64,000 nt of DNA from Escherichia coli. Lineage in GTDB: Bacteria; Pseudomonadota; Gammaproteobacteria; Enterobacterales; Enterobacteriaceae. The notes beneath the pieces are model-generated. The model was not told the DNA's origin, searched no databases, and was given only the letters and a program-made list of their open reading frames with translations. The stretch lies in NCBI RefSeq assembly GCF_024502345.1, contig NZ_JALDNN010000001.1; one strand, 5' to 3'. Positions 3,874-6,443 of the stretch are shown in pieces. Both the position numbers and the translations under genes were made by a program. Each line of letters begins with the position of its first letter. Position 1 is the stretch's first letter.

Positions 3874-6135
3874 ATGCGTAAATATCCTTTAAGTTTACTG
3901 AAGGATAAAAATATTGTGACTTTTTTTGATTTCTGGGGAAAAACCCGACGCGGCGAGAAAGACGGGGGCGACGACTATCACCTTCTTTGCTGGCATTCGC
4001 TGGATGTAGCCGCGATGGGCTATTTAATGGTTAAAAGAAATTGCTTCGGGCTGGCTGATTATTTTCGTCAATTAGGGATTTCTGACAAGGAACAGGCGGC
4101 TCAATTTTTCGCCTGGTTGCTGTGCTGGCACGATATTGGAAAATTTGCCCGCTCTTTTCAACAACTTTACCTGCCCCCTGAACTCAAGATTCAGGAAGGT
4201 GCCAGAAAAAATTACGAAAAAATCTCTCATTCAACGCTGGGTTACTGGCTGTGGAATTATTATTTAAGTGAATGTGAGGAGTTGCTTCCTTCATCTTCAC
4301 TCTCTTCTCGTAAACTTACACGTGTAATAGAGATGTGGATTTCCATAACTACCGGGCATCATGGTCGACCACCTGACCGTATTGATGAGCTGGATAATTT
4401 TCTGCCTGAAGACAAAGCTGCCGCGCGAGATTTTCTCCTTGAAATCAAGGCACTGTTTCCGCTCATAGAGATTCCCACATTCTGGGATGATGACGAGGGC
4501 GTTGAACTTTTAAAACAACTTTCCTGGTATATCTCTGCAACAGTCGTACTCGCAGACTGGACGGGTTCGTCAACGCGATTTTTTCCACGCGTCGCACAGA
4601 CAATGAATATTAAAGATTACTGGCAGAAAACTTTAGTTCAGGCTCAAAACGCCTTAACCGTCTTTCCTCCAAAAGCAGAAACCGCACCTTTCACCGGAAT
4701 TAATACGCTGTTTCCTTTTATTGAGAATCCGACACCGTTACAGCAAAAGGTGCTGGATCTGGATATCAGCCAGCAAGGACCGCAGTTATTTATTCTGGAA
4801 GATGTGACTGGCGCAGGTAAAACAGAAGCGGCGCTTATCCTGGCGCACAGGTTGATAGCTGCGGGGAAAGCTCAGGGGCTGTTTTTTGGTCTGCCAACAA
4901 TGGCAACGGCCAATGCCATGTACGATCGGCTGGTCAAAACCTGGCTTGCTTTCTATTCGCCAGAATCCCGCCCCAGCCTGGTGCTGGCACATAGTGCCCG
5001 CACATTAATGGACCGCTTTAATGAATCACTCTGGTCTGGTGATTTAGTCGGGTCAGAAGAACCGGATGAACAAACGTTCAGTCAGGGATGTGCGGCCTGG
5101 TTTGCCGACAGTAACAAGAAGGCGTTGCTGGCTGAAATTGGCGTCGGCACGCTGGATCAGGCGATGATGGCGGTGATGCCGTTCAAACATAATAATCTGC
5201 GGCTTCTGGGGCTGAGTAACAAAATCCTGCTGGCTGATGAGATCCACGCCTGTGACGCTTACATGTCGTGCATTCTTGAAGGGTTGATCGAGCGGCAGGC
5301 GCGTGGCGGAAACAGCGTTATTTTGCTTTCTGCCACGTTATCTCAACAGCAGCGCGACAAACTCGTCGCTGCCTTTGCGCGGGGTACAGAGGGCCAGCAA
5401 GAAGCTCCGTTCCTGGAAAAGGATGATTACCCCTGGCTGACGCATGTCACGAAATCCAATGTGAACTCACACCGGGTAGCGACGCGCAAAGACGTTGAGC
5501 GTAGCGTCAGCGTGGGTTGGCTTCATAGTGAACAAGAGTGTATTGCGCGTATCGAATCGGCGGTAAGTCAGGGGAAATGCATCGCCTGGATCCGGAATTC
5601 TGTCGATGACGCTATTAAGGTTCATCGTCAGCTGCTTGCCCGCGGCGTCATTCCTGCTTCCAGCCTTTCACTTTTTCATAGCCGCTTTGCTTTTAGCGAT
5701 CGCCAGCGAATTGAAACGGAGACACTGGCACGCTTTGGTAAAGAAGATAGCTCACAGCGTGCCGGAAAAGTCCTTATTTGTACTCAGGTATTAGAGCAGA
5801 GTGTCGATTGTGACCTGGACGAAATGATCTCCGACCTGGCCCCTGTTGATTTGCTGATTCAGCGAGCAGGACGATTACAGCGGCATATCCGCGATATTAA
5901 TGGTCAGTTACTGGAAGTGCGTGCCGGTGTGTATGTTGGTGATACATCAAAACGTATTCGGGAGATGATCTGGCAGCAAATTACCCAACTGGCTGGTTGC
6001 GGAAATGTGGTGATGGCCTGGGCGACCAATACCGAGTCGGGTTTTGAATTTCAGACCTGGGGAGAAAACAGACGTATTCCGGTGGATTTGGATGGGTTAC
6101 GTTTGGTTTCTTTTCTTCCTGTTGATAATCAATAA
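3874..6135 (+). CDS. cas3: Type I-E Cas3 HD nuclease/helicase, apparently C-terminally truncated (753 aa)
   Basis: HD motif HDIGKF, helicase motif [19 protein letters not shown] box ([13 protein letters not shown]), [13 protein letters not shown]; only about 80 aa follow the last helicase motif, far less than the roughly 220 aa I recall in K-12 Cas3. Confidence 0.8.
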
Positions 6136-6231
6136 GTTAGACGTTCTTTAAAAATAAGGAAATGTTTTAATTTAGTTGGTAGATTGTTGATGCGGAATAA
6201 ATTTGTTTAAAAACAGTTATGTATGCTTAGT
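6136..6231 (+). promoter_or_regulatory. AT-rich CRISPR leader immediately upstream of first repeat
   Basis: AT-rich tract (…taaaaataaggaaatgttttaatttagttggtagattgttgatgcggaataaatttgtttaaaaacagttatgtatgcttagt) abutting repeat 1; orientation consistent with repeat sense strand. Confidence 0.55.
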
Positions 6232-6443
6232 GTGTTCCCCGCGCCAGCGGGGATAAACCGGGGCCGACGGTCGCAGTATTGGACCATTTCAAGTGTTCCC
6301 CGCGCCAGCGGGGATAAACCGACTCTTACATGCTTAATCAGATTCTGGCGGATGTGTTCCCCGCGCCAGCGGGGATAAACCGGGCGCACTGGATGCGATG
6401 ATGGATATCACTTAGAATTCCCCGCCCCTGCGGTAGAACTCCC
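6232..6443 (+). CRISPR. Short type I-E CRISPR array: 4 repeats (last degenerate), 3 spacers of 32 bp
   Basis: 29-bp repeat GTGTTCCCCGCGCCAGCGGGGATAAACCG at 6232-6260, 6293-6321, 6354-6382; degenerate terminal repeat gaattccccgcccctgcggtagaactccc at 6415-6443; spacers 6261-6292, 6322-6353, 6383-6414. Confidence 0.92.

Follow-up and report, generated by a model that had tools for sequence, protein, structure and literature searches.

What remains of a CRISPR-Cas locus (short palindromic repeats, clustered and regularly interspaced, with their associated cas genes) when a Cas3-like open reading frame (ORF) runs almost directly into a three-spacer array, and how was the rest lost? The question was raised by a stretch of 64,000 nucleotides from Escherichia coli (assembly GCF_024502345.1, contig NZ_JALDNN010000001.1), referred to here as the window. 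An initial annotation had described a degenerate type I-E locus with an orphaned array, and this description holds, as the genes for the Cascade complex (CRISPR-associated complex for antiviral defence) and cas1 are deleted. The 753-amino acid (aa) ORF, its stop codon 96 bp before the first repeat, the well-conserved repeats and the three 32-nt spacers had also been placed correctly, to the base (Table 1). The region is very probably the CRISPR-I (cysH-iap) locus, carrying the cas-E1 variant of type I-E and killed by one internal deletion that left a fusion of two cas genes behind.

The 753-aa ORF encodes a chimera, Cas3(1-679)::Cas2(24-97), whose two parts are joined in frame and which terminates at the native stop codon of cas2. 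NCBIfam profiles matched Cas3 at residues 14-674 (profile positions 4-665 of 878) and Cas2e (TIGR01873) at residues 678-744 (profile positions 20-87 of 87), and Pfam profiles matched Cas3_HD at residues 21-237, Cas3-like_C_2 at 566-672 and Cas_Cas2CT1978 (PF09707) at 677-744 (profile positions 19-86 of 86). In BLASTP alignments, residues 1-679 were identical at 661 of 679 positions (97%) to residues 1-679 of the 899-residue O157:H7 Cas3, and residues 679-753 were identical at 75 of 75 positions to residues 23-97 of O157:H7 Cas2. Solved Cas3 structures could be aligned only to about residue 702 of 949 (4q2c) and 713 of 964 (4qqw), and the E. coli Cas2 structures 4p6i and 5ds4 were aligned at residues 22-95. 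The HD nuclease and both RecA domains are therefore complete, and Cas3 has lost its linker and C-terminal domain (220 codons): nothing in the chimera matches the C-terminal 220-250 or so residues of the reference or of the solved structures. The short Cas3 tail that the initial annotation saw after the last helicase motif (QRAGRLQRH) is in fact Cas2, since those approximately 75 residues correspond to Cas2 23/24-97, and alignment to both proteins excluded a naturally short Cas3 with a complete C-terminal domain.

The extent of the deletion was determined by base-level comparison with an intact reference, the O157:H7 cas-E1 locus (L006), in which Cas3 has 899 aa. Window positions 3400-5910 are collinear with L006 2196-4705, collinearity ending at cas3 codon 679, and window positions 5909-6382 are collinear with L006 11001-11474, so that the left endpoint lies inside cas3, as had been suspected. 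A single segment of 6,297 bp (L006 4706-11002) is missing, not the 7-8 kb first estimated; it held the last 663 nt of cas3, casA, casB, cas7, cas5, cas6e, cas1 and the first 69 nt of cas2. The initial list of missing genes was thus right for casA-E and cas1 and wrong for cas2, of which the 3' 225 nt survive. Cas3 is not fused directly to the leader either, but joined to cas2 69 nt into that gene, and the native cas2 stop codon and an intact leader follow. The Cascade genes casA/cse1, casB/cse2, cas7, cas5 and cas6e occupy 5.5 kb of the reference that have no counterpart between window positions 5910 and 5911, and the adaptation module is reduced to a cas2 lacking codons 1-23, with cas1 absent.

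At the junction, the parental cas3 reads ...GGTCAGTTA/AAGCGTG, the parental cas2 reads ...TCTGGCTA/CTGGAAG and the window reads ...GGTCAGTTA/CTGGAAG. The only sequence common to both parents is a TA, which occupies codon positions 2-3 in both genes (cas3 nt 2036-2037, codon 679, TTA; cas2 nt 68-69, codon 23, CTA), and the fusion is in frame for this reason. No insertion sequence (IS) was found at or near the junction and no foreign bases at GTTA/CTGG; the window also lacks the IS421 copy that some other alleles have upstream of cas3. The deletion is thus unlikely to have arisen from slippage on extended homology, or from an IS left at the site.

Assignment to cas-E1 was based on three markers. 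A sok RNA (Rfam) and a Hok ORF lie between cysH and cas3, and a hok/sok module beside cas3 typifies E1 loci (PMC3903273); the complement of primer cas3E1-R, GAGAAAGACGGGGGCGACGA, was found at approximately 3957-3976 (primer sequence from PMC3903273). Together these identify the locus as the cas-E1 variant of that study and not as the K-12 (E2) variant. The K-12 protein, used as the yardstick for Cas3 length in the initial annotation, was therefore inexact. The PRK09694 Cas3 model scored 403.9 bits against the 753-aa ORF, under its 569-bit cutoff, and an E2 probe recovered a separate set of 1,223 genomes, disjoint from the E1 set.

The window allele is one of a family. Fourteen related cas-E1 deletion alleles were mapped on the intact reference (L006 coordinates, given as left end to right end). 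Junction A (4705 to 11003, in frame) is found in the window, L001 and L002, and junction B (4705 to 10995, out of frame) in L005 and 16 further genomes (17 genomes). The same left end is joined to casA in L004 (4705 to 6638) and to cas6e in L010 (4705 to 9898). The right end of junction A recurs with left ends at 4224 (L024, out of frame), at 7130 in casB (L023, out of frame) and at approximately 5889 in casA (L008, right end at 11002-3). L007 joins 4824 to 9394, L011 has two deletions (4808 to 8330 and 8724 to 10130), L003 and L009 join 4715 to 11324, with the right end exactly at the start of repeat 1, and L025 combines an inversion of approximately 4672-8225 with a join of 7130 to 4682.

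In L025 (E. coli Res13-Sevr-PER06-05-b-A, positions 3600-4720), an inversion of about 3.5 kb runs from the cas3 3' end through the 5' part of cas7; a TA-to-TA deletion lies within the inverted segment, and the casB hotspot is reused, as in L023. In L003 (positions 4013-4023) and L009 (E. coli 13E0767, WEC), the break is 10 nt deeper into cas3 (...AAGCGTGAC), a single nt (G) is shared, and the break joins the first base of CRISPR repeat 1, which is the normal Cas1-Cas2 integration position; a link between this junction and integrase activity is possible. Recombination of a cas3-derived spacer with cas3, considered for the same junction, was unsupported on inspection. IS421, an IS4-family element, was seen between hok/sok and cas3 in L002, L004, L005, L008, L024 and L025, and was not present in the window, L001, L003 or L010. 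Such a copy might alter cas expression and thereby promote loss of the operon.

Across the 14 alleles, 13 of the 19 distinct endpoints fall at a TA, the rarest dinucleotide of the operon (3.96% of positions); the probability of this is about 1e-14, or about 1e-8 with a slack of ±1 nt. TA endpoints were noted at L006 positions 4224, 4682, 4705, 4808, 4824, 6638, 7130, 8329, 9394, 9898, 10994 and 11002. The contiguous identity of partner sites is exactly 2 bp in six of seven TA-TA pairs (mean 2.14, versus 2.79 for random TA-TA pairs), and partner sites match at 4.86 of 20 flanking positions, versus 5.12 of 20 for random pairs (P = 0.67). Three sites were reused with different partners and in different haplotypes: cas3 nt 2037, cas2 nt 69 and casB nt 106. 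Six different deletion types occur inside one group of near-identical cas3 haplotypes (0-11 differences per 2,037 nt).

Could junction A have arisen once and been spread by homologous recombination, the apparent hotspots reflecting inheritance and mosaicism? Recombination in the cas-E1 region is frequent (PMC3903273), and around the junction the window and L001 are identical over 100 nt on the left side and 26 nt on the right. Against this, L001 and L002 are separated from the window group by 75-82 differences in 2,037 cas3 sites and 15 in 321 cas2 and leader sites, the arrays are unrelated, and the nearest differences between junction-A backgrounds are found 39-100 nt from the junction on its left side and 27 nt from it on its right, the shortest left interval (39 nt) being that with L002. 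In addition, one left endpoint is found with four right endpoints and one right endpoint with four left endpoints, some of them in virtually identical haplotypes. A single origin is consequently regarded as unlikely, and recurrent mutation at hotspots as the more likely explanation.

It is far less probable that the chimera is a functional fusion under selection, comparable to the type I-F Cas2/3 protein or acting as a stand-alone HD-helicase in a new role, and that junction A recurs through selection for the in-frame product. No cas3::cas2 junction other than A was seen to be in frame, junction A is present in two or more diverged haplotype backgrounds, all with an intact 753-aa ORF, and the domains retained from Cas3 are complete. 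The domain order is, however, opposite to that of I-F Cas2/3, Cas3 lacks its C-terminal domain and Cas2 its first 23 or so residues, and no Cas1 or Cascade partner is nearby. Junction B and the L023 and L024 junctions share the hotspots and yet are out of frame, which shows the hotspots to be independent of reading frame and leaves selection for the frame unsupported. The alleles are also rare: of the 2,472 genomes in which this stretch of cas3-E1 is present, only 44 have a break no more than 150 nt from the hotspot on either side.

The reading of the initial annotation, with a truncated cas3 abutting the leader, cas1 and cas2 wholly absent and the right endpoint at the cas2/leader boundary, would fit the proximity of the ORF stop to repeat 1 and the lack of a separate cas1 or cas2 ORF; we consider it highly improbable, given the complete identity of residues 679-753 to Cas2, their match to Cas2e profiles, and the collinearity of the DNA from 5909 with cas2 from nt 68 onward, through the stop codon and into the leader. 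An assembly or annotation artefact can practically be dismissed, as the identical ORF and context recur in independent isolate assemblies, in ENA and Logan metagenome assemblies and in complete RefSeq chromosomes. At least 16 public contigs, some from isolates and some from human-gut metagenomes, carry the exact 753-aa protein, and one isolate contig (L013, GCA_050022275.1) agrees with the window at 8,261 of 8,262 positions.

For the recurrent deletions, the strict 2-bp palindromic overlap, the reused sites and the inversion beside the deletions suggest a staggered cut at TA followed by rejoining. We tentatively propose, as a possibility somewhat short of an even chance, that a TA-specific cut-and-rejoin activity recurrently removes parts of the cas-E1 operon at a few hotspot TpA steps, the window allele being one repeated outcome. 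The candidate activity would be a nuclease, a transposase or a serine-recombinase-like enzyme that leaves 2-nt TA staggered ends. If the proposal is correct, this lineage loses CRISPR-Cas through an enzymatically biased process and not by random decay; and if cas-E1 is deleted repeatedly at the same TAs, a specific, testable mutational mechanism underlies the loss of adaptive immunity in E. coli, and its signature may be present at other loci.

Several other sources of the breaks were considered and set aside. Longer homology hidden at the hotspots in other haplotypes was ruled out because the parental sequences are conserved and have only TA in common, and microhomology or slippage deletion because partner sites are no more similar than random pairs. 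A hairpin common to the TA sites was also ruled out: a modest one, whose loop holds the TA, forms at the cas2 site alone (z = -2.0), and at the remaining sites folding is no stronger than in shuffled sequence. IS-mediated deletion of cas genes was rejected, there being no IS at the junction or flanking it. On inspection there was no support for an IS5 YTAR target, an integron GTT secondary site, a RuvC or RusA consensus, an AAG protospacer-adjacent motif (PAM) beside the break, or a likeness to phiX or rolling-circle plasmid nick sites. No shared extended motif, IS or footprint was found at the TA sites.

The E2 operon was searched with a two-part probe for a compact cas3-to-cas2 deletion of the same kind, and none was found in 1,223 genomes, a negative of little weight, since E1 events are few in number and in part clonal. 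The E1 and E2 variants may decay by different routes. The top matches in the E2 search show IS1 insertions in cas3.

What, then, can the residual locus do? It appears to be functionally dead, and should be inert because no gene for Cascade, Cas6e or Cas1 is present in the locus or in the rest of the window. The search for Cascade-like genes elsewhere in the window was likewise negative (ORFs of the 30-56 kb region were screened; the flanks are housekeeping genes), so that support for the array from cascade, cas1 or cas2 genes elsewhere, which the initial annotation had allowed for, was not found within the 64 kb. Precursor CRISPR RNA from the leader would remain uncut in the absence of Cas6e and unused in the absence of Cascade, and integration of new spacers would be impossible with Cas1 gone and Cas2 deprived of its first strand. 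If the chimera were made from the cas3 promoter, which is normally silenced by H-NS, it would be without the domain by which Cas3 closes the DNA channel and docks on Cascade. The chimera is probably best taken as a pseudogene, as annotated by the NCBI Prokaryotic Genome Annotation Pipeline (PGAP), in whose annotation of E. coli 23CRST035 and NCTC_13148 this junction appears as two overlapping pseudogenes, cas3 and cas2e. A Cas3 call for the chimera by annotation or CRISPR-typing pipelines would overcount functional systems.

Some considerations weigh against a dead locus. The loss of function would follow from gene content, from which it was deduced, and a second source of type I-E Cas proteins may exist outside the window, for example a plasmid-borne cas-E segment such as that on pIOMTU792. 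In three diverged lineages the chimeric ORF has remained open, which fits a recent origin and would also be compatible with some retained activity. A consensus promoter scan found no plus-strand sigma-70-like site before the ORF or in the leader, a result that decides transcription neither way. The plasmid itself (L012, NZ_LC542972.1, 244.4-248.1 kb) is a conjugative IncHI2A plasmid with a chromosomal-type cas6e-cas1e-cas2e-array-iap segment, which implies that a plasmid can be the vehicle for type I-E cas genes and the iap flank.

The leader and array have survived the deletion. The leader is identical along its whole length to that of TOK-001, which has intact cas1-cas2, and has few differences from that of O157:H7. 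Behind it lie 29-nt type I-E (CRISPR2) repeats with 32-nt spacers; three of the repeats are perfect (at 6232, 6293 and 6354, with 61-bp spacing; 0 expected by chance), and no further I-E repeat core was found in the rest of the window. An identical chimera stands next to an 11-spacer array in L014 and L015, in which window spacers 1 and 2 are followed by eight more and then by window spacer 3. Compared unit by unit, the window array is the 11-spacer array minus eight internal units, which were lost after the deletion through repeat-repeat recombination. No spacer has been gained at the leader end relative to the sister array, as expected without Cas1, and the window array thus illustrates how orphan arrays shrink without growing.

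The suggestion in the initial annotation that spacer 2 might record a past phage or plasmid encounter found no support, as the spacer had no match in phages, in plasmids or elsewhere in the window. None of the three window spacers matched any of 50,697 phage records at E <= 1, and among 72,556 plasmid records they matched only CRISPR arrays (in Mb-sized records and pIOMTU792) and no protospacer; no self-target was found within the window with up to 3 mismatches. Three PLSDB "plasmid" records (H113, H114 and H116), at 4.8-4.9 Mb, are evidently chromosomes, and spacer matches there need checking. One of the eight spacers lost from the window array, GCTGAAAATAAAATTTACGCAGTACTGACAGA, matches four P2-like E. 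coli phage records at 32 of 32 positions, with its protospacer at the gpI/tail-fibre junction and ATG before it (L026, phage vB_EcoM-569R10, 9194-9225; sister array in L014, 2782-3269). ATG is an accepted type I-E PAM. The match of this lost spacer to P2-like phages, next to ATG, indicates that the lineage once had working adaptation.

The features of the locus are listed in Table 1. The gene order of the window is cysI, cysH, hok/sok, the 753-aa ORF, the CRISPR array, iap (minus strand) and cysDNC, and on to mutS and hyp/fhlA, and in the housekeeping flanks identity to E. coli chromosomes is 97.8-99.0%. The stretch from mutS to fhlA holds a genomic island (30074-50555) with genes for a tyrosine integrase, an IS5-family transposase, a second XerC/D-like recombinase and several ORFs without a family match. 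It also carries a type I methyltransferase and specificity subunit (no hsdR-sized ORF was seen), a Septu pair (PtuA, 47153-48757; PtuB, 48751-49599) and a Fic/PDC-S04 protein.

Table 1. Coordinates of the features of the cas-E1 remnant and its array in the window
Feature	Coordinates	Strand	Evidence
sok antisense RNA of the hok/sok module	3388..3544	+	Rfam RF01794, 106.7 bits versus gathering score 59
hok-family toxin ORF, 50 aa	3530..3681	+	Sequence reading; L013 equivalent has PF01848 HOK_GEF; "Hok/Gef family protein" in L001 and L006
753-aa chimeric ORF, Cas3(1-679)::Cas2(24-97) and stop, ATG start	3874..6135	+	Profile, structure and BLASTP matches
cas3 remnant, codons 1-679 (HD nuclease, RecA1, RecA2)	3874..5910	+	661/679 identity to O157:H7 Cas3
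Deletion junction, single TA common to both parents	5909..5910	+	Base-level comparison with intact L006 (TA at 4704/4705 and 11001/11002)
cas2 remnant, codons 24-97 and native stop	5911..6135	+	75/75 identity to O157:H7 Cas2 23-97
CRISPR2.1 leader, E1 type, complete, 96 bp	6136..6231	+	Full-length identity to TOK-001 leader
Repeat 1, GTGTTCCCCGCGCCAGCGGGGATAAACCG	6232..6260	+	Repeat search
Spacer 1, leader-proximal; also first spacer of the 11-spacer sister array	6261..6292	+	Array comparison
Repeat 2	6293..6321	+	Repeat search
Spacer 2; also second spacer of the sister array	6322..6353	+	Array comparison
Repeat 3, recombinant repeat where 8 spacer-repeat units went	6354..6382	+	Comparison with L014 and L015
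Spacer 3, conserved iap-proximal "anchor" spacer of many E. coli arrays	6383..6414	+	Last spacer in L001, L002, L003, L006 and L014; its one plasmid match is the pIOMTU792 array
Degenerate terminal repeat, GAATTCCCCGCCCCTGCGGTAGAACTCCC, 17/29 consensus matches	6415..6443	+	Same sequence closes arrays of other loci
iap, 345-aa ORF, conserved right boundary gene of the CRISPR-I locus	6464..7501	-	Annotated as iap in every syntenic locus

E. coli and Shigella commonly carry decayed type I-E systems and orphan arrays, and the locus itself matters little: it is an ordinary, already known decay product, whose exact allele is present in public genomes as pseudogenes. "Minor arrangements" of cas-E1 with truncated cas genes have been described in both groups (Almendros et al., 2014, mBio, PMC3903273), including a "partially deleted cas3" in S. 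flexneri 2a 301 (PMC3903273, Fig. 5), and incomplete cas-E operons have been ascribed to insertion sequences or to "recombination" (PMC3903273, PMC12736100). The arrangements in PMC3903273 share with the window the site (cysH-hok/sok-cas3...cas2-leader-CRISPR2.1-iap), the repeat, the leader type and the anchor spacer; they were ascribed mainly to IS, whereas the window allele has no IS, a clean 2-bp TA overlap and an in-frame cas3::cas2 ORF. The recurrent TA-to-TA breakpoints are the one aspect that appears to be new; no description of TA or nucleotide-level hotspots was found in PMC3903273, PMC12736100 or the literature searched, which is not proof of novelty.

The closest mechanistic likeness, as an analogy only, may be to the TA-targeting cut-and-paste elements (IS630/Tc1/mariner) and to the precise, TA-bounded excision of internal eliminated sequences in ciliates, in which one TA is similarly kept from two parental TA sites. 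Deletion and inversion products, both seen at cas-E1, would be expected from a palindromic 2-bp overlap. The cas-E1 junctions differ from such elements in that no transposon ends, transposase gene at the sites or footprints were found.

Like the type I-F Cas2/3 protein, the window chimera unites Cas2 and Cas3 sequence in one polypeptide. I-F Cas2/3, however, has a full Cas2 at its N-terminus followed by a full Cas3 and works with Cas1, whereas in the window the order is reversed, both parts are truncated, cas1 is absent and the fusion is a by-product of deletion; the I-F Cas3 model matched the window ORF negligibly (E = 0.009). The nearest counterparts of the locus as a whole are the orphan arrays, such as E. 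coli CRISPR-II and those of cas-less B2 strains, in which, as in the window, the array and leader outlast the machinery and change only by loss of units. The window differs from them in that the remnants of two cas genes are still attached, and the inactivating event can be reconstructed to the base.

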